This document shows, piece by piece, positions 4,954 to 19,860 of a DNA stretch of 64,000 nucleotides. Location: positions 986 through 64,985 of the forward strand of contig JBLNEW010000043.1 of NCBI GenBank assembly GCA_050263095.1, in the 5' to 3' direction. The stretch's first letter is position 1; the number at the start of each line of letters is the position of its first letter. Origin of the DNA: Deltaproteobacteria bacterium. GTDB lineage: Bacteria; Desulfobacterota; Deferrimicrobia; Deferrimicrobiales; Deferrimicrobiaceae. The notes under the pieces were generated by a model that saw nothing but the letters and a program-made list of their open reading frames with translations, was not told the DNA's origin and made no database searches. The translations under genes and the position numbers were made by a program.

Positions 4954-5637
4954 TCAGGATTCCTTGACGTGGACGTAATCGCGCAGCCGTGCGCGGTCCA
5001 CGATGAGGTTCCTGCCCTCCCTGCGGATGAGGCCGATCTCCTCGAATTTGTGCAGCTGGATGGTGACGGTCTCCCTGGTGGTACCGATCAGGTTTGCAAG
5101 GTCCTCGTGCGTCAGCTTCAGGGCGATCTTCGTCCCGGTCCGGGTGTCCTCGCCGATGTCTTCGGCCAGATGAAGCAGCTCCTTCGCCAGCCTATGGTAT
5201 GCCCACGCGTGAATGAGGCCCGCGAACTCGCGCTCGACCTCCATCAGCCGGCGCGCCAAAAGCCTCGCGTAGTTCGACGCGAATACCGGGCTGGTGCGCA
5301 GGATTTCAAGGAAGTCTTTGCGTGAAAGGACGCCCGCCTGCACATCGGTCAGTGCGATCGCGGAGAAGGGCCGCTGTCCCTGGACCAGCAGAAGCTCCCC
5401 GAATACGTCGTCCGCGCGAACGATGTGAAGGATCGATTCTGTCCCCCTCTCCGAGAGGGACACGAGCTTCACGAGCCCCTTCCTCACTATGAAAAGGGAA
5501 TCCGCCGGGCCCCCTTCGTAAAACAGGGCGGCGTCGCGGTCGTATTTTCTGTCGGCGAACAGTCCGGCGATCCTCCGGGCTTCCTCCTCCGGGATGCCCT
5601 GGAGCAATTCACCAGCGGTCTGAAAGGGCAGCGGCAC
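4954..5637 (-). CDS. Crp/Fnr family transcriptional regulator (paralog 1)
   Basis: cNMP-fold motifs (LFIVRKGLVKL, FGE), HTH LTHEDLANLIGTTRETVT; GTG start. Confidence 0.93.
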   Translation of the reverse strand: MPLPFQTAGELLQGIPEEEARRIAGLFADRKYDRDAALFYEGGPADSLFIVRKGLVKLVSLSERGTESILHIVRADDVFGELLLVQGQRPFSAIALTDVQAGVLSRKDFLEILRTSPVFASNYARLLARRLMEVEREFAGLIHAWAYHRLAKELLHLAEDIGEDTRTGTKIALKLTHEDLANLIGTTRETVTIQLHKFEEIGLIRREGRNLIVDRARLRDYVHVKES

Positions 5638-5705
5638 GCCCTTATTGTAGTCTTACGGCAATCGGTATTCCATCATCCTCAAAGCGGGATTACGGGATAA
5701 AGAGC

Positions 5706-5762
5706 AGGTCCCGGAGCCCCCGGCGCACCGATCCGTCACGGTCCACCCGGAACTCCGAGACC
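5706..5762 (-). terminator. Stem-loop downstream of small gene 5764-5976
   Basis: AGGTC-C-CGGAG...CTCCG-A-GACCT imperfect inverted repeat; no clear U-tract. Confidence 0.35.
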
Positions 5763-5763
5763 T

Positions 5764-5976
5764 TCAGGCGGCAAGCCGAACCCTCTCCCTGGCGGGAGGA
5801 GCGACCTCGACGGTCCCGGGGATCGGCCACTCGGCCCAAAGCAGCCGGATTCCCGCCTTCTCGGCTTCAGCCATGCCGGCAAGGAGAAGGCCCGCCACGA
5901 TGGCGACGAGGAACAGCAGACAGGTGAACGCAACGCCCAATTCCACGGTCAGGGTCTCGAAGTAGATGCCTTCCAT
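5764..5976 (-). CDS. Small membrane protein (70 aa), paralog family member 1
   Basis: SD GGGGGTGA; one TM helix then MAEAEKAGIRLLWAEWP; ends RLAA; similar to 10670-10879 and 12622-12837. Confidence 0.8.
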   Translation of the reverse strand: MEGIYFETLTVELGVAFTCLLFLVAIVAGLLLAGMAEAEKAGIRLLWAEWPIPGTVEVAPPARERVRLAA

Positions 5977-6000
5977 GGTGTTCACCCCCTTTCCGGCTAC

Positions 6001-6044
6001 AGTCTATTTCGCTACGGGGGGCGGGTTCAGTGAGGAAATTCACA
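6001..6044 (-). promoter_or_regulatory. CRP/HcpR-type box with class II promoter geometry
   Basis: Minus strand TGTGA-ATTTCC-TCACT (6044-6029), 22 nt, then -10 TAGACT (6006-6001). Confidence 0.7.
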
Positions 6045-6135
6045 AATTCGAATATGCTGTTGGCAGCGATTCCCGGGGGCACGTTCGAAAACCCGGTTGC
6101 GGGATCGCGACAGTCGTTGAGATAATCGCGAAACA

Positions 6136-7395
6136 ATGGGCGGAAAACGCATCATGTCGGTAACGCGTTCGGCTTGCCTGCTCCTCGCGCTTGGAGCGGT
6201 CCTGTTGGCCGGATGCGCGGCACCCCGGGCGGCGTACAGGGCGGGAGAAGACCTGCCTTACCCGTCGGATGGGCCGCCGGAGGCGGAGGAGATCCGCCAT
6301 ATCCCCACCGGGCTCAAGCTTTCGCTCGAGGCCGCGATGGACATGGTTTCCGCCGCCCGGTTGATCTGCGTCGGTGAAACGCACGACAACATGCATGCCC
6401 ACCGTGTGGAGCTGATGATCCTCCGCGATCTCCACAGGCGTTTCCCCGGGAAAGTGGCCATCGGCATGGAGATGTTCCGGGAGCCGGAGCAGGCGATCCT
6501 GGACCGTTGGACGAACGGCGAGCTTGCGGAGATCGAGTTCCTGAAGGCCGTGAAATGGTACGAGAACTGGGGATCGGATTTCGGCTACTACAGGGACATC
6601 CTCCGGTTCGCCAGGGAGAACCGGATCGACGTCGTGGCCCTGAACCCTTCGAAGGAGCTCCAGCAGGAAGTCAGGACCTCCGGCCTCGACAACGTCCCCG
6701 CGAAGTTCAAGTCGAAGCTCCCCGAGATCGGCCCGCCCGATCCTTATCAGCGCAAGGCGATGAAGGCGGTCTACGGCGCCCATCTTCGCACGGAGGGGAT
6801 GTTCGACGCGTTCTTCCGGGTGCAGCTGCTCTGGGAGGAGACGATGGCCGTGCGGATCGTCGACTACCTGCGGAGCCCGCGGGGAGAGGGAAAGAAGATG
6901 GTGACCTTCACCGGCGGGTGGCACGTCAAGTACGGATTCGGAATCCCGAAGAAGGTGATCCGCAGGATGCCGATGCCGTACGTAGTGGTCCTGCCGGCGG
7001 AGATCAGCATCCCGGAGGAGAAGAAGGACCAGATGATGGATGTGGATCTTCCGCCGATGCCGCTCCTGCCCGCCGACTTCGTCTGGTGGATCCCCTACGA
7101 GGGGCTGGAGGGAAAGCAGGCGGTAATGGGCATCATGATGGCATCGAAGGACAACGAGGTCGTCGTCGAGGGAGTTGCTCCGGGATCCCCCGCGGAGAAG
7201 GCGGGGATCGCGAAGGGAGACCGGATCGTCGCATTCGACGGGGAGCCCGTGTCAGATGTCACCGACGTGTTCCTCCGCGTCAGGGAGAAGAAGCACGGAG
7301 ACGAGGCGTCGGTGGCGGTCATCCGGGGCGGCGGGGAAAAAACGCTTAATGTGAGGTTCTTCCCCATTCCCGGGAAGAAGCCTCACCCGGATTAG
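6136..7395 (+). CDS. ChaN-family (haem-binding uptake/TIKI-like) lipoprotein with C-terminal PDZ domain
   Basis: Lipobox LLAGC; CVGETHDNMHAH, IGMEMF, QLLWEETMA, GGWHV; PDZ motif GSPAEKAGIAKGDRIVAFDG; start may be 6154. Confidence 0.85.
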   Translation: MGGKRIMSVTRSACLLLALGAVLLAGCAAPRAAYRAGEDLPYPSDGPPEAEEIRHIPTGLKLSLEAAMDMVSAARLICVGETHDNMHAHRVELMILRDLHRRFPGKVAIGMEMFREPEQAILDRWTNGELAEIEFLKAVKWYENWGSDFGYYRDILRFARENRIDVVALNPSKELQQEVRTSGLDNVPAKFKSKLPEIGPPDPYQRKAMKAVYGAHLRTEGMFDAFFRVQLLWEETMAVRIVDYLRSPRGEGKKMVTFTGGWHVKYGFGIPKKVIRRMPMPYVVVLPAEISIPEEKKDQMMDVDLPPMPLLPADFVWWIPYEGLEGKQAVMGIMMASKDNEVVVEGVAPGSPAEKAGIAKGDRIVAFDGEPVSDVTDVFLRVREKKHGDEASVAVIRGGGEKTLNVRFFPIPGKKPHPD

Positions 7396-7399
7396 GGCT

Positions 7400-8107
7400 T
7401 CAGCCGGCGCCTGCGCCGCGCATCCGCATCTCGTCGTGGCGGCCGAACTCCTCGAGCCGCTTCCTGTCGACGACGAGGAAGCCTTCCTCGCGTTTCACCA
7501 GCCCCATGCGCCGGAACTTGTTCAGCTGGGTCGTTACCGTTTCCCGAGTGGTCCCGATCAGGTTCGCGATGTCCTCGTGGGTCAGACGCAGGGGGATCAG
7601 GGTCCCCTTCGGGGTCTCCTGCCCGTGCTCGTCGCACAGTTCCAGCAGGACTCTCGAGAGGCGGTGGTAGGACCAGGTGTGCCCGAAGTCCGCGAACTCC
7701 CTTTCCACCTTCGCCAGCCGCCTCGACAGCAGACTGATGAAATTCCTCGATACGATGGGAATGGAGGTCAGCAGCTCCACAAGGCTGCCCTTGGGGATGA
7801 CGGTAACCGCGACGTCGGTGCCCGCGATTGCGGTCAGGGCCCTTCTCTCCTCGGAGAGCAGGAGCTCCCCGAAGATCGCCCCGGACTTCAGGATGTGGAG
7901 GATCGTCTCCGTCCCCTTGTCCGAGAGGGAGAGGATCCTCACCCTCCCGTCCTTGACGATGTAAAGCGAATCGGCCGAATCGCCTTTTGAGAAGATGGTC
8001 GCGCCTTTGCGATACCGCCGCTCGGCGCAAAGCCGTTCTATCCTGTGGGCTTCGGATTCGGTGACCCCCCTGAACAGCTCGGCGGCCGTGTGGAAGGTGA
8101 GCGGCAT
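7400..8107 (-). CDS. Crp/Fnr family transcriptional regulator (paralog 2)
   Basis: LYIVKDGRVRI, FGELLL, HTH LTHEDIANLIGTTRETVT; aligns end to end with 4954-5637. Confidence 0.93.
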   Translation of the reverse strand: MPLTFHTAAELFRGVTESEAHRIERLCAERRYRKGATIFSKGDSADSLYIVKDGRVRILSLSDKGTETILHILKSGAIFGELLLSEERRALTAIAGTDVAVTVIPKGSLVELLTSIPIVSRNFISLLSRRLAKVEREFADFGHTWSYHRLSRVLLELCDEHGQETPKGTLIPLRLTHEDIANLIGTTRETVTTQLNKFRRMGLVKREEGFLVVDRKRLEEFGRHDEMRMRGAGAG

Positions 8108-8113
8108 GACCCT

Positions 8114-8143
8114 ACTTTACAGCCGCCTCCATGGACAGTTCAA
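8114..8143 (-). promoter_or_regulatory. Putative sigma70 promoter of Crp paralog 2 (probably leaderless mRNA)
   Basis: TTGAAC-N18-TAAAGT, then 6 nt to ATG 8107; no SD. Confidence 0.55.
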
Positions 8144-8165
8144 CCGGCCAGGTTCCATTGCGCTC

Positions 8166-8525
8166 TCACGCCGCCTTGCGGTGTGCCGGCGCTCCGTGCG
8201 CTATCTCCTGCTTCCCTTCCGTCCGCGTTTCCTTCGACTCCGCGATGCCGGAACCCCGCCCCCTGCCCCCGATGCGCACGAGCACGATCAAGGCGAGCAG
8301 CCCGGGAAGGAGCGAAAAGGAAGCCGACCGCAGCGCTTCAAGCGGATCGAATGCGGAAAGAACGAACGGCGCGGCTTCGACGGGATACGCGCCCAAAGCG
8401 ACCGGGCCCGCCCACATCAGCCATTCGGGATCCGCCACCAGAAGGAGGAATGCATAGACGACAAAAAAGGTCCCGACGAAAAGTACCTCCGCCGTCGTTC
8501 CCCATTTTCCCTTGAGAGGTTTCAT
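8166..8525 (-). CDS. Small membrane protein (119 aa), hypothetical
   Basis: ATG 8525 after purine-rich RBS; two hydrophobic segments; ends RKAA; preceded by CRP-like box. Confidence 0.6.
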   Translation of the reverse strand: MKPLKGKWGTTAEVLFVGTFFVVYAFLLLVADPEWLMWAGPVALGAYPVEAAPFVLSAFDPLEALRSASFSLLPGLLALIVLVRIGGRGRGSGIAESKETRTEGKQEIAHGAPAHRKAA

Positions 8526-8583
8526 GCCTCTTGCCTCTTTCCCGGCCCTCCTTCCGTGCCGCCTCGTTCCCGGGCCTGTCTTC

Positions 8584-8626
8584 ACGGTAACGGATCGCCG
8601 CAGGGGCTTCCGTGAAAGCTTTTACA
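8584..8626 (-). promoter_or_regulatory. CRP/HcpR-type box with class II promoter geometry
   Basis: Minus strand TGTAA-AAGCTT-TCACG (8626-8611), 21 nt, then -10 TACCGT (8589-8584). Confidence 0.6.
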
Positions 8627-8684
8627 CACGGGAAAACAAGGCACCTCCCGGGGAGGGTGTGGGAGGCTTCACTCCAAACGCAGA

Positions 8685-8713
8685 GCGGGGAGGTTCGACG
8701 AGAACCTCCCCGC
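8685..8713 (-). terminator. Hairpin terminator downstream of MFS gene
   Basis: Perfect 12-bp stem GCGGGGAGGTTC/GAACCTCCCCGC with 5-nt loop. Confidence 0.65.
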
Positions 8714-8748
8714 GGAGCTGTTGCTGTTTCCAGGGATCGGGTCCCTGT

Positions 8749-9990
8749 TCAGGCTGCCGCCTTCGCCGGCTCCATCCTTGTCTCCGCCGGACGCCGGGCG
8801 AGCATCTCGAAGCCCAGCGCGACGAGGCAGATCACGGCGCCGGTGTAGAAGGCGTACTGGTAGTTTCCGTAGATGTCGAACATGCGGCCGCCGATGCGCG
8901 GGCCGATGAGCCCGGCCACGCCCCACGCCGTGAAGAGCAGGCCGTAGTTCACTCCCACGTTCTTGGTGCCCCAGAAGTCGGCCGCCGTGGAAGCGTTCAC
9001 CGAGAGCTGCGTCCCGTAGCACCAGTAAACCGCGAACACGAGGATATACAGTGCCGAGACGCTGGACCCCACATGGTACAGGAGGAACATGGCCACGACC
9101 GAGATCCCGATCATCAGGCGCAAGACGTTCAGGCGGCCGAGGTGGTCGGACATCCAGCCCGAGAGGATCCGGCCCGATGCATTGCCGGCCGCCCCGACGA
9201 AGATCGCCGTCGTCGCCAACGTGAGCGAGTGTCCTTGCGCCTGGGCGAACGGAACGAGCTGGCTGATTACCATGAGGCCCGCCGACGTGCCGAGAGCGTA
9301 CGCCAGCCACAGGAAATAGAAGCCGCGCGTCCTGACCACCTCGGACGGTGTGTACTCATATAGCGTGCCGGCGGCCTTGGTGGCCGGGGACGGCACCCAG
9401 CCGGCCGGTTTGTAGCCTGGTTTCGGATTCTGCAGAAGGTACGTAGCGATCATCCCCATGACGAAGAAGATGATACCGAACGCAAAGAAGGTGGTCCGCC
9501 ATCCGTACGTGGGGATCAGCAAGTTGCCCCCCAGAGGGCCGAAGATCGCCGATCCCCCCCCGTATCCCGCGACCGCCAACCCGACCGCGAGGCCCCTCTT
9601 GTCGGGGAACCACTTGGACATAACGGGGATCGGGGTTGCGTAGCCGAAGCCCTGGCCGGTGGCCGCCACGACGCCCAGCCAGAACACGATCCAGCCGATG
9701 CTGTCGGTGTAGCCGGCCATGAAGAATCCGATTGCGTTCAGGGTGGCGCCGATGAACGACACTTTCGTCGGCCCCAATTTGTCCTGGATCCGCCCGCCTA
9801 CGATGAAGGTGACCCCAAATACCGCGACCAGGACCATGAATATGATCGAAACGTCCGCCCGCGTCCATCCGAACTCCTTCTGTATAGGCGCAACAAAAAT
9901 ACTCCATGCATACACGGCGCCGAGGGCAAGGTTCATCGACAGCCCCCCCACGATGCGCCACCACCGGTTCAATCCCGTCTGCCCATCCAT
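8749..9990 (-). CDS. MFS transporter, oxalate/formate antiporter (OFA) family
   Basis: GAVYAWSIF, GRIQDKLGP, KWFPDKRGLAVG, GRILSGWMSDHLGR, GVNYGLLFTAWG; about 12 TM; SD GGAGG before ATG 9990. Confidence 0.9.
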   Translation of the reverse strand: MDGQTGLNRWWRIVGGLSMNLALGAVYAWSIFVAPIQKEFGWTRADVSIIFMVLVAVFGVTFIVGGRIQDKLGPTKVSFIGATLNAIGFFMAGYTDSIGWIVFWLGVVAATGQGFGYATPIPVMSKWFPDKRGLAVGLAVAGYGGGSAIFGPLGGNLLIPTYGWRTTFFAFGIIFFVMGMIATYLLQNPKPGYKPAGWVPSPATKAAGTLYEYTPSEVVRTRGFYFLWLAYALGTSAGLMVISQLVPFAQAQGHSLTLATTAIFVGAAGNASGRILSGWMSDHLGRLNVLRLMIGISVVAMFLLYHVGSSVSALYILVFAVYWCYGTQLSVNASTAADFWGTKNVGVNYGLLFTAWGVAGLIGPRIGGRMFDIYGNYQYAFYTGAVICLVALGFEMLARRPAETRMEPAKAAA

Positions 9991-10086
9991 GGCCTCCCCT
10001 CCATTTCTCCGCGGCTCGCCGCGGAATGCGTTTAAGAAGCCGACTTCCCCATATTCATCTTTATAGCGGACTCTGCCGGGGAGTTC

Positions 10087-10125
10087 TGTGAAACCTTTCA
10101 CGTTGTCGCTGCGAAAGGTTTCACG
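10087..10125. promoter_or_regulatory. Two tandem CRP/HcpR-type boxes between divergent MFS and DUF488 genes
   Basis: TGTGA-AACCTT-TCACG (10087-10102) and TGCGA-AAGGTT-TCACG (10110-10125); TATAAA lies 21 nt downstream of box 1 on the minus strand. Confidence 0.7.
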
Positions 10126-10247
10126 GAAGCTGGCAGGCGGGCTGGAGGTCCCGGGAGCTGCCGTTGGAACCGGCCGTCCCCTTTTCTTATCTTACGGGGG
10201 TAAAGGAAGGCATCCGGAAAGGCGAGTTCCGTGAAAGGAGGAACGGG

Positions 10248-10601
10248 ATGATTCGTATCAAGCGGGTCTACGAAAAGCCGGACCCTTCCGACGAAATCCG
10301 GATCCTCGTCGATCGCCTTTGGCCCCGGGGAGTGAGCAAGGCCGCTGCCCGGATCGACGAGTGGAGGAAGGACCTCGCCCCGACGGACGCCCTGCGGAAG
10401 TGGTTCAACCACGATCCGCGGAAATGGGAGGAGTTCCGTCTGCGCTACCGCAACGAACTCGATGCATCGAGAAAAATGGAGGATCTTAAAGAACTGGCCG
10501 GACGGGTGAAGACGGAAACCGTGACCCTGCTGTACGCCGCGCACGACAAGACGCGCAACAACGCCGTTGCTCTCAAGAAGATCATCGAGAAGTTCCTGTA
10601 G
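10248..10601 (+). CDS. DUF488 / YeaO family protein
   Basis: MIRIKRVYE...RILVDRLWPRGVSK...WRKDLAPT..LRKWFNHDP.KWEEF..RY; NNAVALK; SD AGGAGG. Confidence 0.9.
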   Translation: MIRIKRVYEKPDPSDEIRILVDRLWPRGVSKAAARIDEWRKDLAPTDALRKWFNHDPRKWEEFRLRYRNELDASRKMEDLKELAGRVKTETVTLLYAAHDKTRNNAVALKKIIEKFL

Positions 10602-10613
10602 GGCCGGTCTGAT

Positions 10614-10650
10614 GGCCGGGAGGTTCCCAGTGAAGGGAATCCCCCCGGCC
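10614..10650. terminator. Hairpin between convergent genes
   Basis: GGCCGGGAGGTTCCC-agtgaa-GGGAATCCCCCCGGCC. Confidence 0.6.
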
Positions 10651-10669
10651 CGCCATGCTTGTGATGCCT

Positions 10670-10879
10670 TCAAGCCGCCAGGCGGATCTCTTCCTCCGTC
10701 TCGGGTTCGTCGGCTTCAGGAAGCGGCCACTCCGCCCAATACAGGCGGTTCCCTCTGCTCTCCTCCTCGGACATGTGCCCGAAAAGGACTGCGCTCACCA
10801 CGATCGCGAGCAGGGCCACTTCGGCCAGGTACGCGAAGCTGGATCCGATGAACTCAGTTCCCAGTGCGAAGATTTCCAT
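10670..10879 (-). CDS. Small membrane protein (69 aa), paralog family member 2
   Basis: SD GGGGGTGA; TM helix then MSEEESRGNRLYWAEWP; ends RLAA. Confidence 0.8.
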   Translation of the reverse strand: MEIFALGTEFIGSSFAYLAEVALLAIVVSAVLFGHMSEEESRGNRLYWAEWPLPEADEPETEEEIRLAA

Positions 10880-10932
10880 GATCTTCACCCCCTTTCCCTC
10901 TGACCGTAAGATAACGTGGAGAGGAGATCGAT

Positions 10933-10966
10933 TGTGAAAGGTCGAACGGAAATGATATTTTTCACG
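10933..10966. promoter_or_regulatory. Two degenerate CRP/HcpR-type boxes
   Basis: TGTGA-AAGGTC-GAACG (10933-10948) and AATGA-TATTTT-TCACG (10951-10966) between divergent small gene and folE. Confidence 0.45.
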
Positions 10967-11009
10967 GAGGGAGCCAAAACAGGTTTCTCCGCCGCTCCCG
11001 GGAGGACCG

Positions 11010-11678
11010 ATGAGTTCGGACGGCGACCATGAGCACAGGAAAATCCTGCCGGGCATGAGTGCGAACCGCCCGCGCGTTCCGGAAGACCGGATTCGTAAGT
11101 TCGAAGGCTACATGGAGGAAATCTTCTCGGCTTTCGGGATGGATCTTGACACCCCGGCCACGCGGGACACCCCGCGGCGGTTTCTCCGGGCGATGCAGGA
11201 CAGCACCGAAGGGTACGAGGGCGACCCGAAGCTGATCACGGTGTTCGATACCGAGTGCCGCGGAGGGCCGGACTGCCGGCTCAGCCAGATCGTGGAAGGT
11301 CCGATTCCGTTCTTCAGCCTCTGCGAGCACCACGCGCTTCCGTTCTACGGCCGCGCCTATGTGGGGTACATCGCCCACGAGCAGATCATCGGCCTGTCGA
11401 AGCTCACGCGGCTCGTGCGCCTCTATGCGAAACGGTTCACCGTGCAGGAGCGGATCGGCCAGCAGATCGCCGACTCCCTGGACGCGATGCTCCGTCCGCA
11501 TGGCGTTGCGGTGTACCTCGACGCTCACCACCTGTGCACCCAGATGAGGGGGGTCCGGGAGACGGCTCCGCTGACACGCACGACGTTCTGGCGCGGGAAT
11601 TACGAAAGCGACCCGGCCCTTCGGACCGAGTTCTACGTGGCATGCGGGCTGCACCGGTTCGAAGCCGGGACCCGGTAG
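11010..11678 (+). CDS. folE: GTP cyclohydrolase I
   Basis: DTPRR, SLCEHHALPFYG, IIGLSKLTRLV, QER, HLCTQMRG zinc ligands. Confidence 0.9.
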   Translation: MSSDGDHEHRKILPGMSANRPRVPEDRIRKFEGYMEEIFSAFGMDLDTPATRDTPRRFLRAMQDSTEGYEGDPKLITVFDTECRGGPDCRLSQIVEGPIPFFSLCEHHALPFYGRAYVGYIAHEQIIGLSKLTRLVRLYAKRFTVQERIGQQIADSLDAMLRPHGVAVYLDAHHLCTQMRGVRETAPLTRTTFWRGNYESDPALRTEFYVACGLHRFEAGTR

Positions 11679-11691
11679 GCGGCGGGATGCG

Positions 11692-12540
11692 ATGCTTCCC
11701 CTGACGCCCCTGGAATCCCTCTTCGAAACGGGGCAGGGGGAGGAGCTTCCCCTCCCCCGCGAACTGTCGGCGCTCTACGGTCCTCTCCGCTTCCCGGCGC
11801 GCAGGGGCCGCAGGTACGTAATAGGCAATTTCGTGACCACGCTTGACGGCGTCGCGTCCCTCTCCGACCCCGTGCTGCCGGGAGGAGGCCCCATCAGCGG
11901 TTCCAACCCGCACGACAGGATGGTGATGGGCCTGCTTCGGGCCGTCGCCGACGCCGTGATCGTCGGCGCCGGTACGCTGCGCTCGGTCCCCCGTCACCTT
12001 TGGACGGCCGAGCACATCTTCCCGGCTCTGGCCGACCCGTACCGCCGGCTTCGGGCCGCGCTGGGGAAGACCGCTCCGCCCTTGAACGTCATCGTAACAG
12101 CGCGCGGCGAAATCGACCCGGGCCTTCCGGTTTTCCGGTCCGGGGACGTAAAGACTCTCGTCGTCACAACGCCGGCAGGCGCCCGGAAGGTCCGTGAAAG
12201 GGGCTTTTCCGGGGCGGTCGGGATCGAGGAAGTGAACGGTGCGGCCGGGGTCGGCGCCCGGGAAATTCTGTCCGCGATCGACCGTGTCCTGCCCGGGAAA
12301 TTATTCCTTGTCGAGGGGGGGCCGCGGTTGATGGGGGATTTCTTCGCCGAGAAATGCCTGGACGAGCTTTTCTTGACGCTAGCTCCGCAGGTTGCCGGCA
12401 GGGACGGGGCCGCAGAGCGTCCTGGATTCGTCTCAGGCAAGCGCTTTGCGCCGGAGCGCCCTCTCTGGGGAACGCTTGCCGGCGCAAAACGCGGCGGCAG
12501 CCATCTGTTTTTAAGGTATGCATTCGCCGCTGAAGAATGA
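11692..12540 (+). CDS. RibD C-terminal / dihydrofolate reductase-fold protein
   Basis: NFVTTLDG, LRAVADAVIVGAGTLR, LVEGGPRL, LDELFLTLAP. Confidence 0.88.
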   Translation: MLPLTPLESLFETGQGEELPLPRELSALYGPLRFPARRGRRYVIGNFVTTLDGVASLSDPVLPGGGPISGSNPHDRMVMGLLRAVADAVIVGAGTLRSVPRHLWTAEHIFPALADPYRRLRAALGKTAPPLNVIVTARGEIDPGLPVFRSGDVKTLVVTTPAGARKVRERGFSGAVGIEEVNGAAGVGAREILSAIDRVLPGKLFLVEGGPRLMGDFFAEKCLDELFLTLAPQVAGRDGAAERPGFVSGKRFAPERPLWGTLAGAKRGGSHLFLRYAFAAEE

Positions 12541-12562
12541 TCTCCCGGCGGGATCCTGCGGG

Positions 12563-12602
12563 AAAAAAACCGGGGGATTGCCCGGTTCGGCAACCCCCCG
12601 GG
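12563..12602 (-). terminator. Intrinsic terminator of small gene 12622-12837
   Basis: CCGGGGGATTGCC/GGCAACCCCCCGG stem with A7 on plus strand (U-tract on minus). Confidence 0.7.
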
Positions 12603-12621
12603 TCGGGGGCGATCGGCAAAG

Positions 12622-12837
12622 TTACGCGGCCTTAGGATACTTGACGCCCTCCACCGGCGCGGATTCGCCGATGTCCGTAAACGGGGATTCTGCCCAGAAG
12701 ACCGGGTTTCCCTTGGATTCCTCGTCGGCCATGTTGCCGAGAAGGATGCCGCACGCCGCGATAACCAACAGCGCAAGCCCGCACAGCGCGGCAATCGGAG
12801 AACCGAACAGTTCGATGTCGAAAAGGATGCCTTCCAT
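12622..12837 (-). CDS. Small membrane protein (71 aa), paralog family member 3
   Basis: SD AGGAGGTGA; TM helix then MADEESKGNPVFWAESP; ends PKAA. Confidence 0.8.
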   Translation of the reverse strand: MEGILFDIELFGSPIAALCGLALLVIAACGILLGNMADEESKGNPVFWAESPFTDIGESAPVEGVKYPKAA

Positions 12838-12865
12838 CTTTCTCACCTCCTTCCTTTCTGATCCC

Positions 12866-12908
12866 ACTATAGGGCCGGGCGCGGAAGTGGTCTGTGCAAC
12901 CTTTCACA
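12866..12908 (-). promoter_or_regulatory. CRP/HcpR-type box with class II promoter geometry
   Basis: Minus strand TGTGA-AAGGTT-GCACA (12908-12893), 21 nt, then -10 TATAGT (12871-12866); also overlaps the -35 region of a divergent promoter (TGcTATTCT at 12922-12930). Confidence 0.75.
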
Positions 12909-12983
12909 TTGCCCCCCCCGGTGCTATTCTCAATCGTTGACTGCACCGGCAAGCTCCGCGCGGGCATGACGGTCCTGGAGGGA

Positions 12984-13325
12984 ATGATGCCGTTCATCGT
13001 CCGGATGGGCGCCAGCGCCATCGCAATCCTGATAATCGCGTACCTGCTCCCGTCGGTGATGTCGGCCGACGGTCCGATGGCGGCGCTGGCTGCCGCTTTC
13101 GTGCTGGGATTGGTCAACGCGATTATCCGGCCGGTTTTCGTCCTCCTCACGCTCCCGGTAACCGTAGCGACTCTCGGGATATTCCTCGTCGTGATAAACG
13201 GACTGCTTCTTTGGCTCGTATCCGCGATCGTCCCCGGCGTCCACGTCAACGGGTTCCTCGGGGCCGTTGCGGGCTCGCTGCTCATCAGCGCAATCTCGTG
13301 GATCCTTACGAGGGTCGTTCCATGA
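12984..13325 (+). CDS. YvlD-like 4-TM membrane protein (phage holin superfamily IV)
   Basis: VLGLVNAIIRPVFVLLTLPVTVATLGIFLVVINGLLLWL. Confidence 0.85.
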   Translation: MMPFIVRMGASAIAILIIAYLLPSVMSADGPMAALAAAFVLGLVNAIIRPVFVLLTLPVTVATLGIFLVVINGLLLWLVSAIVPGVHVNGFLGAVAGSLLISAISWILTRVVP

Positions 13326-14722
13326 GCGTCTCCATCCGGTTTTTGGGCGGCGTGCGCGAGGTGACCGGCTCGTGCATCCTGCTGCAGTCCGGCCGAGCCA
13401 GGTTCCTGGTCGACTGCGGGATGTTCCAGGGCGGGTCGGAGAGCGACCGGAAGAACGCCCGTCCTTTCGCCGTTCCCCCTTCCTCGATCGATTTCGTCCT
13501 TTCCACCCACGCCCATATCGACCATTCCGGGCTGCTCCCCAAGGTAGTGCACGACGGATTCAAGGGGAGGATTTACGCCACTCCGGCGACGGCCGACCTG
13601 TTGAGGGTGATGCTTCCGGATTCCGGACACATCCAGGAGAGGGAGGCGGAGTGGCAGACGCGGAGGGCGATGCGGGCGGGGAATCGCGACGGACGACCTC
13701 TTTACACCGAAGCGGATGCCCTGGCGGTTCTTCCGCGCCTGGAACCGGTTCCTTACGGAAAAGGGTTCGAGCCCGCGCCAGGCATCCGTGTCCGCTTCCT
13801 GGACGCGGGGCATATTCTGGGATCGGCGATCGTGTGCGTCTCGATCAGGGACGGCGGCAGGGACAGGGAACTCGTCTTCACCGGGGACCTCGGCCACCGG
13901 GGCCTTCCCATAGTGCGGGATCCGGCGCCCGTAGAGAAGGCCGACGTCCTCGTCATGGAGTCCACCTACGGGAACCGGGTTCACAAGGGTATGGAGCAGT
14001 CGATAGAAGAGTTCCTGCACGCCGTGACGGACACTCTCGGCCGGAAAGGCGGAAACGTGATCATTCCCGCCTTCGCCGTGGGCCGCGCCCAGGACATACT
14101 TTACCTGTTAGCCGACCTGACCCGCCAGGGAAGGATTTCCGGGATCACGCTGTACATAGACTCGCCGCTGGCGGCGCAGGCCACGCAGATTACCCTTCGC
14201 CACCCGGAATGCTTCGATGACAGCACGCGACGGGCGCTGGCATGGAAGGAGGCGCACCCCGACCGGTTCCGGGTCGTCGTCACCGCGAGCGCCGAGGAGT
14301 CGATGGCGCTTAATTCAATGCGTGGAGGCGGGATCATAATGGCGGGCAGCGGGATGTGCGAGGCCGGGAGGATAAAGCATCACCTCAAGCACAATCTATG
14401 GCGCAAGGAGTCCAGCATCGTCATCGTCGGTTTCCAGGCGGCGGGGACGCTCGGCCGCAAGATAGTCGACGGAGCTAAATATGTCCGTGTTCTTGGGGAA
14501 GACATCGCGGTGGCGGCCGACATCTACACGATCGGAGGGCTGTCGGCGCACGCGGACCGGGACGATCTGCTGGCCTGGGCCGGCGGATTCCGCTCGCCGC
14601 CTGAGCAGGTCTTCGTGGCCCACGGCGAGGAATCCGTTTCCCTTGGTTTCGCGCAGGAGCTGCGCGGCCGCCTCAAGTGGAACGCCGAGGTTCCGGTTCC
14701 AGGGCAGCCGCTGGAGGTCTGA
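13322..14722 (+). CDS. MBL-fold metallo-hydrolase, beta-CASP RNA-processing family
   Basis: EVTGSC, LVDCG, THAHIDHSG, AGHILGSA, ESTYG, PAFAVGR, SAHAD, HGE. Confidence 0.92.
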   Translation: MSVSIRFLGGVREVTGSCILLQSGRARFLVDCGMFQGGSESDRKNARPFAVPPSSIDFVLSTHAHIDHSGLLPKVVHDGFKGRIYATPATADLLRVMLPDSGHIQEREAEWQTRRAMRAGNRDGRPLYTEADALAVLPRLEPVPYGKGFEPAPGIRVRFLDAGHILGSAIVCVSIRDGGRDRELVFTGDLGHRGLPIVRDPAPVEKADVLVMESTYGNRVHKGMEQSIEEFLHAVTDTLGRKGGNVIIPAFAVGRAQDILYLLADLTRQGRISGITLYIDSPLAAQATQITLRHPECFDDSTRRALAWKEAHPDRFRVVVTASAEESMALNSMRGGGIIMAGSGMCEAGRIKHHLKHNLWRKESSIVIVGFQAAGTLGRKIVDGAKYVRVLGEDIAVAADIYTIGGLSAHADRDDLLAWAGGFRSPPEQVFVAHGEESVSLGFAQELRGRLKWNAEVPVPGQPLEV

Positions 14723-15362: not shown

Positions 15363-16211
15363 GTGGATCGAAAAAGCTTCGTCGCGTTCCTTTTCCTTGC
15401 CTGGTGCGCCGCAACATTCGCCGGGGCGCCCGGCGCGCTGGGTCATGTACGGGAAACCCCGGAAGATATCCTGAAACAGATCGGCGTTGACGAGAATCCG
15501 GGGGGACAGGTTCCCCCCGGACTCGCCTTTCGAAACGAGGAAGGGAAAACGGTCCTGGTCGGGGATTTCTTCGTGAAGGGGCCGGTCGTCCTCACGCTCA
15601 ATTATTACACCTGTCCCATGCTATGTCCCCTGACCCTGCGCAACCTGCTGTCATCTGCGGAAGCAGTGGGCGGGATATCGCTCGAACGCGATTTCCGGAT
15701 CGTGACCGTCAGCATCGATCCCGACGAGATGCCCGAGGCGGCGCGCGCCCGGGCCGACGAAATGCACGGGATGATGAAGTCGGCCGGCCCCCCCGGTGCC
15801 AGATGGGCGTTCCTTTACGGAGGCCGGGAGGAAATCGCGAAGCTGACCGCAGCCGTGGGATTCCGTTACCGGAAGCTGGAAAACGAGTTCGCCCATCCCA
15901 ACGTCGTCGTGGTTCTCACGCAAGGCGGGAAGATTTCCCGGTACCTGTACGGGATCGAGCAGGACCCGCGTGACCTGCGGCTGGCTCTCATCGAGGCGGC
16001 CGGCGGGAGGATAGGGGAGTCGCCGAACGTCAACCGGGCGCTGCTGTACTGCTTCCATTACGACCCGGTCGCGAAAAAATACGCGCTATACGCCAGGAAC
16101 ATCATGAAGGCGGGCGGCATTTTCACTCTTGTCTTGCTGGGGTCTTTGTATTTAGCCTTGTGGAAGCGCCGAAAACCAAGGACCCTTGCGGGTCGATCGG
16201 GGGATGGATGA
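15363..16211 (+). CDS. SCO family copper chaperone for cytochrome c oxidase
   Basis: YYTCPMLC (CxxxC), SIDP, FAH, ISRYLYG, C-terminal TM; GTG start inferred. Confidence 0.88.
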   Translation: MDRKSFVAFLFLAWCAATFAGAPGALGHVRETPEDILKQIGVDENPGGQVPPGLAFRNEEGKTVLVGDFFVKGPVVLTLNYYTCPMLCPLTLRNLLSSAEAVGGISLERDFRIVTVSIDPDEMPEAARARADEMHGMMKSAGPPGARWAFLYGGREEIAKLTAAVGFRYRKLENEFAHPNVVVVLTQGGKISRYLYGIEQDPRDLRLALIEAAGGRIGESPNVNRALLYCFHYDPVAKKYALYARNIMKAGGIFTLVLLGSLYLALWKRRKPRTLAGRSGDG

Positions 16212-17203
16212 CGAACGCGTACGCGTCGGGCGAGGCGGCTTCGCGGTCCGCCCTCCAGATAGACGCCGTCTTTTTCTTCATAACGGCGGTTTCTCTCTTT
16301 TTCTTCTTCCTGGTCGAAGGGCTTCTCATTTATTTCGCCATACGATACCGCAGGAGGAAGGCCTCGGAGGACGCTGCGACCTCGGAGGTCAAGAGTCACC
16401 TCGTACTTGAAATCGTGTGGGTGATCATACCCTCCCTCGTAGTGCTGGCTTTTTTCGCCTACGGATACGTCGTTTATCGGGACGTCACCACGCCGGCCCC
16501 CGGCTCGAGCGACATAAACGTCATGGCCCGCCAGTTCTCGTACGAGTTCAAGTATCCCGACGGCCATACCACCGTCGACCTGCTGCGGCTGCCCGTCGGA
16601 AAGCCGGTCAAGCTGATCATGACCTCGCAGGACGTCCTCCACGGGTTCTTCCTCCCCGACTTCCGGCTCAAGCAGGACGTCGTGCCGGGGCAATACACCT
16701 ACCTTTACCTGCATCCCGACAAGGAGGGGACATACGACATCTTCTGCACGCAATATTGCGGGGTGGGACATTCCACGATGCGGGGCAAGCTCGTCGTGAT
16801 GTCCGCGGTCGATTATGCGAAATGGGCGCAGGCCGCGAAAACCGCGGGGGCCGCCCGGTCGCTTCCCGAGAAGGGGAAGGAACTGCTTTCGAAATCCGGC
16901 TGCCTGGGATGCCATTCCATCGACGGAAGCGTCAAGATCGGTCCGACCTTCAAGGGGCTTTACGGCAGGGAATCGCACCTTGAAGGGGATCGCGAGGTCT
17001 ATGCGGACGAGGAATACATCCGTGAATCGATCTACGACCCGGGAGCCAGGATAGTAAAGGGTTTTCCCAACGTCATGCCGACCTTCAAGGGGCGTCTCTC
17101 CGACGACGACATCGCCGCGATAATCGCATACCTGAAAACGCTTCCGGGCGGGGATTCGGAGCGGGAGAAGGAAAAAAAGGAGAGGGGGGAGAGGAAAAAG
17201 TAA
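16208..17203 (+). CDS. coxB: Cytochrome c oxidase subunit II with C-terminal cytochrome c domain (caa3 type)
   Basis: LEIVWVIIP, DVLHGF, CuA motif CTQYCGVGHSTM, heme motif CLGCH; ATG 16208 overlaps sco stop. Confidence 0.93.
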   Translation: MTNAYASGEAASRSALQIDAVFFFITAVSLFFFFLVEGLLIYFAIRYRRRKASEDAATSEVKSHLVLEIVWVIIPSLVVLAFFAYGYVVYRDVTTPAPGSSDINVMARQFSYEFKYPDGHTTVDLLRLPVGKPVKLIMTSQDVLHGFFLPDFRLKQDVVPGQYTYLYLHPDKEGTYDIFCTQYCGVGHSTMRGKLVVMSAVDYAKWAQAAKTAGAARSLPEKGKELLSKSGCLGCHSIDGSVKIGPTFKGLYGRESHLEGDREVYADEEYIRESIYDPGARIVKGFPNVMPTFKGRLSDDDIAAIIAYLKTLPGGDSEREKEKKERGERKK

Positions 17204-17299
17204 CGAGAAAGGGCGATTAGCCGCCAGCCGGCACGCAACCTTATTGCGCATGACGACATCGCATACGGTGAAAATCGTAATAACGGCGGGAGATGAGGA

Positions 17300-18940
17300 A
17301 TGGCGGAAACCACCGCTGACGGTGCGGCTATCACCCTGAACGGAAACGGGCGATCAAAGGGGTACCTGGAAGAAAAGGGATTCTGGTCCTGGGCCCTGAC
17401 GCTGGATCACAAGCGGATCGGCGTTCTTTACCTGCTGACAACGCTTCTTTTCTTTCTCGTAGGCGGGATTTTCGGCCTCCTGATCCGGATCAAGCTGATG
17501 TATCCCGGGCAGGAGATATTCAGTGCCCACGTCTACAACGTAATTTTCACCCTCCACGGATCGATAATGATATTCCTCTTCGTTATTCCTGCGATTCCGT
17601 CGGGGCTGGGGAACTTCTTCATACCGCTGCTGATCGGGGCCCGGGACGTTGCTTTCCCAAGGCTCAACCTCGCCAGCTACTGGTTCTTCGTCGCGGGGAT
17701 CCTGATCATGGTGTCATCGCTCCTTAGGCCCATGGACACGGGATGGACCTTCTACACCCCCTATTCCGCGAAGACCGCCGCCGACGTCACCCTCCTTTCC
17801 TTCGGCATCTTCCTTATCGGCATGTCGTCGATCCTGACCGGGCTCAACTTCCTCGTCACGATCCACAAGCTCCGGGCGCCCGGGATGGACTGGCACAAGC
17901 TGCCCCTTTTCATCTGGGGGATGTATTCGACGAGCATCATCCAGGTCGTCGCGACTCCCGTGGTGGGGATAACTTTCCTTCTCCTCGCGATGGAGCGGCT
18001 CTTCGGGATCGGTTTCTTCGATCCCGCAAAGGGAGGAGACCCGATCCTGTTCCAGCATTTCTTCTGGTTCTACTCGCACCCGGTGGTCTACGTCATGATC
18101 CTCCCCGCCATGGGAATCATCTCCGAGGTCGTGCCGGTCTTTTCGCGCAAGCCCATCTTCGGGTACAAGGCGATCGCATACTCGTCGCTGGCCATCGCGT
18201 TCATCGGGTTCTTCGTGTGGGGGCACCACATGTTCGTAAGCGGCATGTCCAAGACCGCCAGCATCATCTTCTCGTTCCTCACGTTCTTCGTGGCCGTCCC
18301 CACCGCGGTCAAGGTATTCAACTGGATCGCGACGCTCTACAAGGGGTCCATCACGTTCGAGTCGCCGATGCTGTACGCCCTGACATTCATATTCCTGTTC
18401 ACGTTCGGCGGGCTGACCGGCATGTTCCTTGGCGCTCTTGCGACCAACGTCCATGTGCACGACACGTATTTCGTCGTGGCCCACTTCCACTACACGATGA
18501 TGGGAGGGACGGTGGTGGGATTCCTCGCCGGGCTGCACTACTGGTTCCCCAAGATGACCGGCCGGATGCTCAGCGAGAAGCTTGCAAGGCTGGCGTGGCT
18601 CCTGACGTTCATCGGCTTCAACGTGACGTTCCTTACGCAGTTTTTCCTGGGGTACAAGGGGATGCCGCGGCGGTGGGCCGAGTATCCCGCGCAGTTCCAG
18701 GATCTCAACATCGTGTCCACCGTGGGATCGTGGATCCTCGCCGCTGGCATCCTGATCATGTTCGTCAATTTCATCCGGGGGTATTACGCGGGCGAGCCGG
18801 CGCCGGCCAATCCGTGGAAAAGCCTGACGCTGGAATGGCAGGCGGCATCCCCCCCGTCGACGGAGAATTTCGAGAAGATCCCCGTGGTGACGGATTGGCC
18901 GTACGGCTACTCCAAGAGGAAGCCGGAAGGAAATGAGTGA
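17300..18940 (+). CDS. coxA: Cytochrome c oxidase subunit I, family A2
   Basis: DHKRIG, FPRLN, WFYSHPVVY (YS marks A2), WGHH, K-channel PTAVK, HFHY, MPRR. Confidence 0.97.
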   Translation: MAETTADGAAITLNGNGRSKGYLEEKGFWSWALTLDHKRIGVLYLLTTLLFFLVGGIFGLLIRIKLMYPGQEIFSAHVYNVIFTLHGSIMIFLFVIPAIPSGLGNFFIPLLIGARDVAFPRLNLASYWFFVAGILIMVSSLLRPMDTGWTFYTPYSAKTAADVTLLSFGIFLIGMSSILTGLNFLVTIHKLRAPGMDWHKLPLFIWGMYSTSIIQVVATPVVGITFLLLAMERLFGIGFFDPAKGGDPILFQHFFWFYSHPVVYVMILPAMGIISEVVPVFSRKPIFGYKAIAYSSLAIAFIGFFVWGHHMFVSGMSKTASIIFSFLTFFVAVPTAVKVFNWIATLYKGSITFESPMLYALTFIFLFTFGGLTGMFLGALATNVHVHDTYFVVAHFHYTMMGGTVVGFLAGLHYWFPKMTGRMLSEKLARLAWLLTFIGFNVTFLTQFFLGYKGMPRRWAEYPAQFQDLNIVSTVGSWILAAGILIMFVNFIRGYYAGEPAPANPWKSLTLEWQAASPPSTENFEKIPVVTDWPYGYSKRKPEGNE

Positions 18941-19556
18941 TCATACGGTACACCCGGAAATGGCCGCGGAGGGATCCGGCCACGCGCACATGGATCCGGC
19001 GCAGGCGTACGACGCCGCAAAGCTGGGGATATGGACTTTCCTTGCGACCGAGGTCCTGCTGTTCGGCGGGCTTTTCACGGCTTACATCGTCTTCCGCCTC
19101 AAGTTCCCGGAGATGTTCCGGATCGACCATGCCCACCTGAACCGGATCATGGGAGCGACCAACACGGTCGTCCTCATATGCAGCAGCCTGACCGTGGCGC
19201 TCGGCATCGCGGCCGTACGGAAGGGGAAGCAGGGGCTGCTCAAACTTTATCTTGCCCTGACGATCCTCCTGGCGGCGGTGTTCCTCGGGATAAAGTACGT
19301 GGAGTGGAACGAGAAGTTCGCCCACGGGCTGTTCCCCGACACCGACGTGTTCTTCTCCCTTTACTTCGTGATGACGGGGCTGCACGGTCTCCACGTCCTG
19401 GGAGGCATGCTGGTTCTCGGAGGCGTTCTGGCGCTTGCGTGGCGGGGAAAATTTTCGGAGCGTTATTATACGCCGGTGGAAGTTTCCGGTTTATACTGGC
19501 ACTTCGTGGACCTTGTATGGATCTACCTGTTCCCCCTGTTCTACCTTATAGGGTAG
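18933..19556 (+). CDS. coxC: Cytochrome c oxidase subunit III
   Basis: GIWTFLATEVLLFGGLF, MTGLHGLHV, GLYWHFVDLVWI. Confidence 0.95.
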   Translation: MSDHTVHPEMAAEGSGHAHMDPAQAYDAAKLGIWTFLATEVLLFGGLFTAYIVFRLKFPEMFRIDHAHLNRIMGATNTVVLICSSLTVALGIAAVRKGKQGLLKLYLALTILLAAVFLGIKYVEWNEKFAHGLFPDTDVFFSLYFVMTGLHGLHVLGGMLVLGGVLALAWRGKFSERYYTPVEVSGLYWHFVDLVWIYLFPLFYLIG

Positions 19557-19563
19557 GAGAGCC

Positions 19564-19842
19564 ATGAAGAGCTCGCACGGCACGGGTTACGGAATCTACC
19601 TGGCGGTCTTTGCGGCCCTGCTGGTCTTGACCGGGGCGACCGTCGCGGTATCCTACATCGACCTGGGGGTAATGAACGTCGCCGTCGCCCTGCTCATCGC
19701 GTCGCTCAAGGCCTCTCTCGTCGCGCTGTTCTTCATGCACCTGAAGTTCGAGAACAAGCTCGTCTGGGCGTTTGCGCTGGTCCCGATCTTCTTCCTGGTG
19801 CTCATCGTCGGGGGGACGATCTCGGATACCCTGTACCGCTGA
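19564..19842 (+). CDS. coxD: Cytochrome c oxidase subunit IV
   Basis: ALLIASLKASLVALFFMHLK. Confidence 0.9.
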   Translation: MKSSHGTGYGIYLAVFAALLVLTGATVAVSYIDLGVMNVAVALLIASLKASLVALFFMHLKFENKLVWAFALVPIFFLVLIVGGTISDTLYR

Positions 19843-19860
19843 AAATCCAAGGAGGCAATC

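Follow-up and report, generated by a model that had tools for sequence, protein, structure and literature searches.

The window analysed here, 64,000 nucleotides (nt) of contig JBLNEW010000043.1 from a bacterium of the Deferrimicrobiaceae (assembly GCA_050263095.1, a 2.46-Mb draft that is 99% complete), carries two genes for Crp/Fnr-type regulators, Crp1 and Crp2, amid palindromes that resemble the operator of the Escherichia coli cyclic AMP (cAMP) receptor protein CRP. The question raised by this locus is whether the regulators and the palindromes form a regulatory circuit of their own and, if so, what it might respond to. An original prediction, made from the letters of the DNA, had proposed a local regulon of seven boxes with class II promoter geometry, possibly under a redox, nitric oxide (NO) or oxygen signal. 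According to the analysis presented here, the cluster probably represents a lineage-restricted local and autoregulated Crp-type regulon with class II geometry, in which the repeated unit would consist of an operator, a small membrane-protein gene and a Crp/Fnr gene. The genes concerned are the following (positions refer to the window):

4954 to 5637, minus strand: Crp1, Crp/Fnr regulator with helix RETVTI and N-terminus MPLPF, without cysteine; second gene of the predicted sp1-crp1 operon.
5764 to 5976, minus strand: sp1, single-pass membrane protein of 70 amino acids (aa) with C-terminus RLAA; first gene of the predicted sp1-crp1 operon.
7400 to 8107, minus strand: Crp2, Crp/Fnr regulator with helix RETVTT; downstream of mp4.
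8166 to 8525, minus strand: mp4, 119-aa membrane protein with C-terminus RKAA and no family match.
8749 to 9987, minus strand: MFS transporter, predicted SfMCT-type monocarboxylate (L-lactate) transporter (NF049980), module-specific paralogue.
10248 to 10601, plus strand: DUF488 protein with PF22752 and PF04343.
10670 to 10879, minus strand: sp2, 69-aa paralogue with C-terminus RLAA.
12622 to 12837, minus strand: sp3, 71-aa paralogue with C-terminus PKAA.

Both regulators belong to the Crp/Fnr superfamily, which is characterised by an N-terminal beta-roll of the cNMP-binding type and a C-terminal Crp-type winged helix-turn-helix, with matches above the cut-offs to PF00027 (3e-21 for Crp1 and 8e-22 for Crp2) and to PF13545 (2.4e-18 and 1e-19, respectively). 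They had been described as close paralogues with a common GTTRETVT helix and without an FNR-type cysteine cluster, and this is borne out: they are 52% identical over 221 residues, Crp1 is devoid of cysteine, and Crp2 has two scattered cysteines. In an alignment with E. coli CRP, both proteins keep R180, E181, T182 and V183, and the position of R185 is occupied by I in Crp1 and by T in Crp2, as had been noted before. The helix thus combines Arg180 and Glu181 with boxes of the TGTGA type, the specificity expected of CRP, where Arg180 pairs with the G of the TGTGA half-site (PMC545781, in excerpt). Three genes of the genome exceed the PF13545 cut-off, the third being located on contig C55; its helix, VPETFSR, is FNR/Dnr-like, with an E--SR pattern suited to TTGAT boxes. 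The genome has no further Crp/Fnr gene, and with the third one set apart by its FNR-type helix, the palindromes are likely to be bound by Crp1 and Crp2. A distant global CRP that could own the sites instead was not found in the 99% complete assembly, in which Crp1 and Crp2 are the sole candidates with the right helix.

The seven proposed 16-mers are all present, exactly at positions 6029, 8611, 10087, 10110, 10933, 10951 and 12893, and all of them are intergenic given the gene starts supported by homology (ATG of the MFS gene at 9987, ATG of sp2 at 10879, start of a holin-like gene after 12966). They had been taken for a single type of operator; instead, two types can be distinguished. A type-1 box, TGTGA(G/A)-N4-CTCAC(G/A) with the core TGTGAG-N4-CTCACG, precedes every sp1-crp1 operon and no other gene. 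Boxes of type 2, TGTGAAASSTTTCACA, stand in front of sp2, sp3, mp4-crp2 and the MFS gene as well as close to DUF488. The full motif is longer than TGTGA-N6-TCACA and reads TGTGAAA-SS-TTTCACA. To avoid circularity, a palindromic position weight matrix (PWM) was built from 32 sites at 16 loci of other genera only and then used to scan the genome; its scores are included in the list of boxes, which are given without strand:

6029 to 6044: type-1 operator, reading TGTGAATTTCCTCACT in the direction of sp1, with its centre 60.5 nt ahead of the sp1 ATG; PWM score below 10; position conserved in relatives.
8611 to 8626: type-2 operator CGTGAAAGCTTTTACA, PWM score 25.5, third in the genome; conserved in two relatives (G001 and G015).
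10087 to 10102: type-2 operator TGTGAAACCTTTCACG, PWM score 27.7, best in the genome.
10110 to 10125: type-2 operator TGCGAAAGGTTTCACG, PWM score 23.2, 23 bp centre to centre from the box at 10087.
10933 to 10948: type-2 operator with one half degenerate, TGTGAAAGGTCGAACG, PWM score 18.3, fifth in the genome.
10951 to 10966: doubtful seventh box, PWM score below 10, more likely the extended -10 element TGaTATTTT of folE.
12893 to 12908: type-2 operator TGTGCAACCTTTCACA, PWM score 27.0, second in the genome.

The five best PWM matches of the whole genome are therefore the boxes at 10087, 12893, 8611, 10110 and 10933, and the sixth match scores 15.7. As a control, the reversed genome was scanned, which gave no match of 18 or more and a single one of 16 or more. 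The scan thus places these five of the seven boxes above background. In agreement with this, the pattern TGTGAAANNTTTCACA has two matches in 2.46 Mb at up to one mismatch, both in the cluster, as compared to 0.06 expected from base composition; at up to two mismatches, four of six genome-wide matches lie in the cluster (about 1.5 expected), and at three mismatches the count is at chance level (24 vs 21.7 expected). With the best boxes of the genome all located in the cluster and no other CRP-type regulator present, the regulon is better regarded as local than as global, as had been proposed. Taken together, six of the seven boxes are well above chance or conserved; the box at 10951 is conserved within the genus only and does not rise above chance. 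Further PWM matches of 10 or more in the window are those at 11426 and 8986, both in coding sequence, and a weak intergenic one at 55503 (TGCTTGAAAGATTTCGCACT, score 13.8), far from the cluster. Several weak matches (10.1 to 15.7) also lie within about 6 kb of contig C27, at 40-46 kb, which may only be due to local A+T richness.

Conservation of the boxes extends beyond the genome under study. The tandem pair at 10087 and 10110 is kept in three relatives (G001, G002 and G015), and at least seven genomes have the box of 12893 at its place between sp3 and the holin-like gene. In the spacer between sp2 and folE, TGTGAAAG-TCGAAC together with the -10 block is invariant in five genomes of three genera, and the flanks diverge. 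This bears on the idea that the boxes are inherited promoter copies of duplicated sp genes, or that they belong to the third Crp/Fnr protein or an unrelated factor. The three sp genes are indeed paralogous and their promoters could share ancestry; however, the same box also stands before the non-paralogous MFS and mp4 genes, and across genera it stays invariant while its flanks diverge. As for another owner, the E--SR helix of the third regulator suits TTGAT, and regulator and box co-occur. We consider an origin or ownership of this kind exceedingly improbable.

The co-occurrence is seen in the distribution of the genes. The sp family was found in 17 of 61 related genomes, and genes similar to Crp1 and Crp2 (E 1e-58 or better) are present in exactly those 17, referred to below as module genomes; two further genomes contain only relatives of Crp1/2 that are 34-37% identical. 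A member of the same genus (G004, 99% complete) has neither an sp gene nor a Crp1/2-like gene, and in an even sample of the phylum the sp family is limited to two of 301 genomes. Crp2 orthologues with 52-92% identity lie beside type-2 boxes in the relatives. Furthermore, an independent scan of metagenome contigs with an alignment of the sp family (A4) yielded 23 sp1-type loci. In all 23 a type-1 box is located at 59-62 nt and is followed by a TAnnnT -10 hexamer at 21-22 nt, and a Crp1-type gene comes next after sp1 in all 18 loci with at least 385 nt downstream, the other five having at most 149 nt. Three side observations on distribution may be added. In G016, whose genome is 90% complete and in which no sp or Crp1/2-like gene was found, a good type-2 box lies in the interval that separates the end of RibD_C from the holin-like gene (locus L071, contig C46, 8833-8848), where no sp3 is present; this box may be a relic. 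A contig of a metagenome-assembled genome labelled Actinomycetota (L024, 5181-5464) carries the same sp gene with a box at -63 and the -10 block TATCTTACGGTCAG, at 65% G+C, and its phylum label may reflect a binning error or a transfer of the module. In G009 (L058, contig C7, 10956-11108), an sp3-like frame without MEGI start or box reads MPPGGGCPG...; it is probably a decaying copy and stands beside an intact sp2-like gene.

The arrangement of the boxes relative to the promoters suggests how they would be used. Predicted -10 elements, all on the minus strand, are located as follows:

6001 to 6006: TAGACT of sp1-crp1, 22 nt from the box at 6029.
8584 to 8589: TACCGT of mp4-crp2, 21 nt from the box at 8611; same arrangement in G001.
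10060 to 10065: TATAAA of the MFS gene, 21 nt from the box at 10087.
10908 to 10913: TATCTT of sp2, 19 nt from the box at 10933; 20-21 nt in relatives.
12866 to 12871: TATAGT of sp3, 21 nt from the box at 12893; identical in G001, G002 and G003.

Four of these hexamers (TAGACT, TACCGT, TATAAA and TATAGT) had been named in the original prediction and were found in place, 21-22 nt from their boxes; at sp2, the GACCGTAAGA block is invariant in alignment A2. Across 18 genomes, a core box with up to three mismatches is present upstream of 35 of 37 sp genes. Thirty of these boxes are centred 59-68 nt before the ATG (31, if a tie had not made the count take 10951 over 10933 for sp2 of this genome), and four more lie at 120-131 nt. 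When mp4 is included, 39 of 42 upstream regions contain the core box, and in 32 of these 39 promoters a TAnnnT hexamer follows 19-23 nt downstream, in 24 of them at exactly 21 nt; at random positions of the same sequences, it was found in 6.0% of 7455 cases. The hexamer in the -35 position is poor, e.g. CGGAAC or CAGACC. A box 21 nt before a predicted -10 across relatives corresponds to the proposed class II geometry, and class II CRP promoters have the activator site centred at -41.5 (PMC5957442, in excerpt). Crp1 and Crp2, with Arg-Glu in the recognition helix, would recognise palindromes of 16 bp whose centres lie about 41.5 bp ahead of the start site, and would act from there as class II activators. 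Since the two regulator genes lie behind boxes of their own in the order box-sp1-crp1 and box-mp4-crp2, positive autoregulation is predicted, both regulators activating their own genes through these boxes.

The same arrangement could be read in the opposite sense, with the boxes as repressor operators at which Crp1 and Crp2, sitting over the -35 position, shut the promoters including their own and so exert negative autoregulation. This reading draws on the overlap of box and -35 position in every promoter, on the description of Crp/Fnr proteins as repressors as well as activators (PMC545781, in excerpt), and on the box at 10933, which would come to about -27.5 relative to a putative promoter of folE. 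However, the fixed spacing of 21 nt in 24 of 39 promoters together with a poor -35 is the layout of class II activators, and a repressor would not require phasing of this precision; RNA-library contigs covering the genes, described below, argue weakly in the same direction. Repression as the main mode is in our view distinctly unlikely, and activation by Crp1 and Crp2 is preferred.

The two types of operator are accompanied by a difference in the recognition helix. In an alignment of 27 regulators, the equivalent of CRP R185 is I or L in all 11 of the Crp1 type and T, N, H or A in all 16 others, and these 16 lie beside A-tract (type-2) boxes. Of the 23 type-1 boxes of the metagenome loci, 20 have G at position 6 and 19 have C at position 11. 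Because the type of box covaries with helix position 185, we infer that Crp1 would act at type-1 and Crp2 at type-2 boxes.

The predicted outputs of the circuit comprise both regulator genes, the three paralogous 70-aa proteins, mp4, the MFS transporter and probably DUF488. Of the regulon members proposed before, the small membrane proteins, the transporter and DUF488 are linked to boxes in several genera. The transporter itself had been called an OFA transporter; it instead passes the NCBIfam equivalog for the SfMCT L-lactate MFS transporter (NF049980) with 388.2 bits, the cut-off being 320, so that by its sequence it is assigned to the SfMCT-type L-lactate transporters. SfMCT is a structurally solved bacterial homologue of the SLC16 family (PMC6573034, in excerpt). 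Orthologues with at least 58% identity were found only in seven module genomes, always beside boxes, and the next-best MFS matches are 47% identical and widespread. In three relatives (G002, G013 and G023), DUF488 either follows a box or shares an operon with the MFS gene, which makes it probably a member of the regulon. The box at 10110 might be a second site for the MFS gene or a class I-like site for DUF488. At 10183-10200, before DUF488, the block TTATCTTACGG repeats the -10 block of the sp2 promoter (10904-10914, other strand); if TTATCTTACGG served as the -10 element of DUF488, the centre of the box at 10110 would fall near -83.5, as at class I-like sites. The suggestion that folE is a target is doubtful: the box at 10933 would sit at about -27.5 of its putative extended -10 element, and the supposed box at 10951 looks like that element itself.

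Hints on expression come from three soil RNA-seq runs of three studies, whose contigs are 92-99% identical to the window. They cover the MFS gene, sp1 and mp4-crp2, and sp3 is covered in two of the three runs. Contigs spanning 5370-5972 and 7300-8408 fit a co-transcription of sp1-crp1 and of mp4-crp2 without proving it. One contig ends in adaptor at 10040, 20 nt beyond TATAAA and 53 nt short of the MFS ATG, which is compatible with a start at or just upstream of this position and gives a weak hint for the start of the MFS transcript. The lack of RNA cover for ChaN-PDZ, RibD_C and the holin-like gene is not evidence of their silence, nor can depth be used to rank genes. Joints within RNA contigs at 10606/10786, 10748/12826 and 5838/12830 are probably due to relatives or to mis-joins between paralogues.

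What signal Crp1 and Crp2 might sense was approached from their sensor domains. In CRP, cAMP is contacted by G71, E72, R82, S83, R123, T127 and S128. All 27 regulators share FGE, an Arg in the phosphate-binding loop and an Arg in the C-helix, which align with CRP G71, E72, R82 and R123. The rest of the contact set differs, S83 being replaced by A or P, T127 by V and S128 by an invariant Glu, and the CRP equivalog of NCBIfam is missed with 66.3 and 76.8 bits at a cut-off of 266. Since the pocket keeps Gly71, Glu72, Arg82 and Arg123, the sequence favours a small anionic ligand as effector over an iron-sulfur cluster or a thiol switch. The N-terminus MPLPF is invariant in all 11 Crp1-type regulators and is unusual for N-termini of Crp proteins. 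It recalls CooA, a regulator with carbon monoxide dehydrogenase targets in which Pro2 (or the N-terminal amine) and a His are the haem ligands. Pro2 is invariant in the Crp1 type; the operators, however, are of the TGTGA rather than of the TGTCGGC type listed for CooA (PMC545781, Table 11, in excerpt), and no carbon monoxide dehydrogenase target with a box was found. The segment also recalls CRP of Gardnerella, where the N-terminal segment fills the pocket (PMC11445507, in excerpt).

Crp1 and Crp2 might be sensors of redox state or NO similar to HcpR, Dnr or FNR and serve respiration, in line with the signal proposed earlier. The HcpR of Desulfovibrio uses TTGTGA-N6-TCACAA (PMC545781, in excerpt), the caa3 oxidase operon is 3 kb away, and the resemblance of the invariant MPLPF to CooA can be added. 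We nevertheless found no support for a redox, NO or oxygen signal. A cysteine cluster, which in FNR holds a [4Fe-4S] centre, is lacking; His71 is not invariant across the family, and FGE...R and the C-helix Arg of the cAMP pocket are kept in 27 of 27 regulators, i.e. the contacts of CRP to phosphate and ribose. With their RETVT helix and 41-55 bits in the FNR model (cut-off 228), the two proteins are not of the FNR kind, and they are likewise far below the cut-offs of the NCBIfam equivalogs for FixK and FnrL. The only Prismane-family (PF03063) gene, located on contig C19, has no box of the CRP or FNR type with up to two mismatches in the 1.5 kb upstream, nor does it lie together with Crp1 or Crp2, which argues against an HcpR function. 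The presumed link to the caa3 oxidase is not supported either, as the stretch from 14.7 to 21 kb contains no PWM match of at least 10. A respiratory sensor of this kind is thus very improbable.

Alternatively, the two proteins could be ordinary cAMP or cGMP receptors of the GlxR/CRP-Mt kind that respond to carbon status. The solved structures closest to Crp1 and Crp2 are GlxR and CRP of Mycobacterium tuberculosis (E 2e-24 to 2e-22), four of the cAMP contacts are kept as described above, the genome encodes one CHASE2 class III cyclase, and a monocarboxylate transporter is a main target. On the other hand, the changes at S83, T127 and S128 and the low CRP scores speak against such a receptor, a match to the cyclase family PF00211 is missing from six of the 17 module genomes, including G009 and G015 with a completeness of 97% each, and the regulon is local instead of global. 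This alternative is possible, if on the unlikely side.

For the class II regulon proposed here, several observations weigh against an all too simple picture. The related genomes are kin and not independent of each other, so that the co-occurrence counts overstate the evidence. The type-1 pattern at up to two mismatches gives 18 matches in the genome and 14 in the control, i.e. no enrichment; because this pattern is not above chance in this genome alone, the box at 6029 rests on its conservation. The spacing between box and -10 element of sp2 is 19 nt, not 21, and downstream of the box at 10110 no -10 element is present at the class II distance of 21 nt on the plus strand. If the contig end at 10040 were taken literally as the transcription start, the box at 10087 would be placed at -54.5. 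As to the four cAMP contacts kept in the sensor, a search of the genomes for PF00211 cyclases had matches in 11 of the 17 with the module and 29 of the 44 without it. These counts show no link between cyclase and module, and they neither support a cyclic nucleotide as effector nor exclude it.

The small membrane proteins deserve a closer description. sp1, sp2 and sp3 form one family, with three copies in the genome that are all located in the cluster. Database searches found 673 relatives; among the 120 listed, none has a Pfam domain and all are named merely 'hypothetical protein', and look-ups in the Atlas returned only unnamed clusters. In an alignment of 17 sequences (A1), Met1, Glu2, a Glu after the membrane helix, Ala and Pro of a WAEWP motif and the C-terminal Ala-Ala are invariant, and the first Trp of the motif is nearly so. 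Of 34 sequences, 31 have AA at the C-terminus and three have VA, and all 21 complete sp1-type proteins from metagenomes end in Ala-Ala. By comparison, AA ends are found in 31 of 1979 crude gene calls of the genome. The RKAA end of mp4 is shared by its orthologues in G001 and G002 but not by the distant orthologues of G009 and G023. The N-terminal tail of the sp proteins has no Lys or Arg in 34 of 34 sequences and the 15 residues after the helix have 2.3 on average; the positive-inside rule therefore predicts an external N-terminus and a cytoplasmic C-terminus. A terminal Ala-Ala-COO- is the main determinant for ClpXP, and native proteins with this ending are ClpXP substrates (PMC7652416, in excerpt). 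ClpX is present in the genome, and its transfer-messenger RNA (tmRNA) tag ends in ...AYAA, with the reading frame ANDYSYAYAA assigned by eye (contig C53, 6977-7317); the gene is cut at the contig end, was missed by ARAGORN and was located with Rfam. Because the invariant C-terminus resembles a ClpXP degron, the sp proteins may be short-lived, although rapid turnover is a reasoned guess by analogy. One could go further and imagine them as the signalling partners of the regulators, i.e. as short-lived, membrane-anchored products of the same transcript that feed the status of membrane or transport to Crp1 and Crp2. We regard this role as unlikely; if it were true, a small membrane protein and a Crp/Fnr protein would make up a self-contained two-gene sensory module not described for the Crp/Fnr superfamily.

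The cluster is interspersed with and flanked by genes of other kinds:

6136 to 7395, plus strand: ChaN/Tiki-like lipoprotein with PDZ domain (ChaN-PDZ).
11010 to 11678, plus strand: folE.
11692 to 12540, plus strand: RibD_C-type reductase.
After 12966, within 12894 to 14722, plus strand: PF04020 'holin 4' membrane protein (the holin-like gene), followed by a beta-CASP RNase.
Downstream of the beta-CASP RNase gene: glyoxalase, SCO1 homologue and then the caa3 oxidase operon at 16160 to 20721.

ChaN-PDZ and beta-CASP, present in 33 and 38 of the 61 genomes, respectively, are core genes flanking the cluster. In relatives without the module, ChaN-PDZ adjoins the holin/beta-CASP genes, e.g. in G028 (2304920-2307938), in G011 (contig C4, 29971-33036), in G021 and in G025. 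The Crp2 cluster of about 5.5 kb therefore resembles an insertion between core genes, and the sp1-crp1 pair looks as if it had been inserted at the other side of ChaN-PDZ. Neither flanking gene was retained as part of the module, beta-CASP being as frequent as stated and ChaN-PDZ a core gene of many genomes that lack sp. A binding of the Ala-Ala tail of the sp proteins by the PDZ domain of ChaN-PDZ was also considered and set aside, as that gene often occurs without sp and the tail is predicted to be cytoplasmic.

The locus offers a compact, testable example of the way in which paralogous regulators may share out their DNA sites, and a handle on the role of a conserved Ala-Ala-tailed micro-protein encoded beside a transcription factor. 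The hosts are uncultured soil and sediment bacteria, and the transporter and sp genes are among those covered by contigs of soil RNA libraries.

When compared to known systems, the proposed regulon shares with E. coli CRP the two-domain Crp/Fnr fold, the identical residues R180 to V183, the TGTGA-N6-TCACA operator and a site 21-22 nt before the predicted -10 element, i.e. at about -41.5. It differs in that the regulators are only 27-28% identical to CRP, have T or I in place of R185 and changes at S83, T127 and S128, and are predicted to be co-transcribed with small membrane-protein genes in a local regulon. GlxR of Corynebacterium and CRP (Rv3676) of M. tuberculosis are the best sequence matches of solved structure, but these are cAMP-linked global regulators of Actinobacteria, whereas here the contacts to adenine differ and cyclases do not co-occur with the module. 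A comparable pair of paralogues with overlapping motifs that are split by discriminator bases has been reported from M. tuberculosis as Cmr and CRP (PMC5758884, in excerpt). Desulfovibrio HcpR is likewise a Crp/Fnr protein with Arg180; it comes from the former Deltaproteobacteria and uses the operator TTGTGA-N6-TCACAA (PMC545781, in excerpt). Its hallmark is the control of hcp and frdX, and hcp is often the neighbour of its gene, in contrast to the absence of box and co-location at the Prismane-family gene here. With the SsrA/ClpXP degrons, the sp proteins have in common the end Ala-Ala-COO-, in a genome with ClpX and a tmRNA tag ending in ...AYAA, but their predicted cytoplasmic tail is encoded in the gene and not added by tmRNA. 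The DNA-binding logic, a Crp/Fnr protein at a TGTGA-type box at -41.5, is thus already textbook knowledge. What appears new is an unnamed family of small membrane proteins strictly coupled to one Crp/Fnr subfamily, in the same 17 of 61 genomes and with an operon in 18 of 18 loci that are long enough to show it, and a pair of sister regulators whose operator variants track a single position of the recognition helix.

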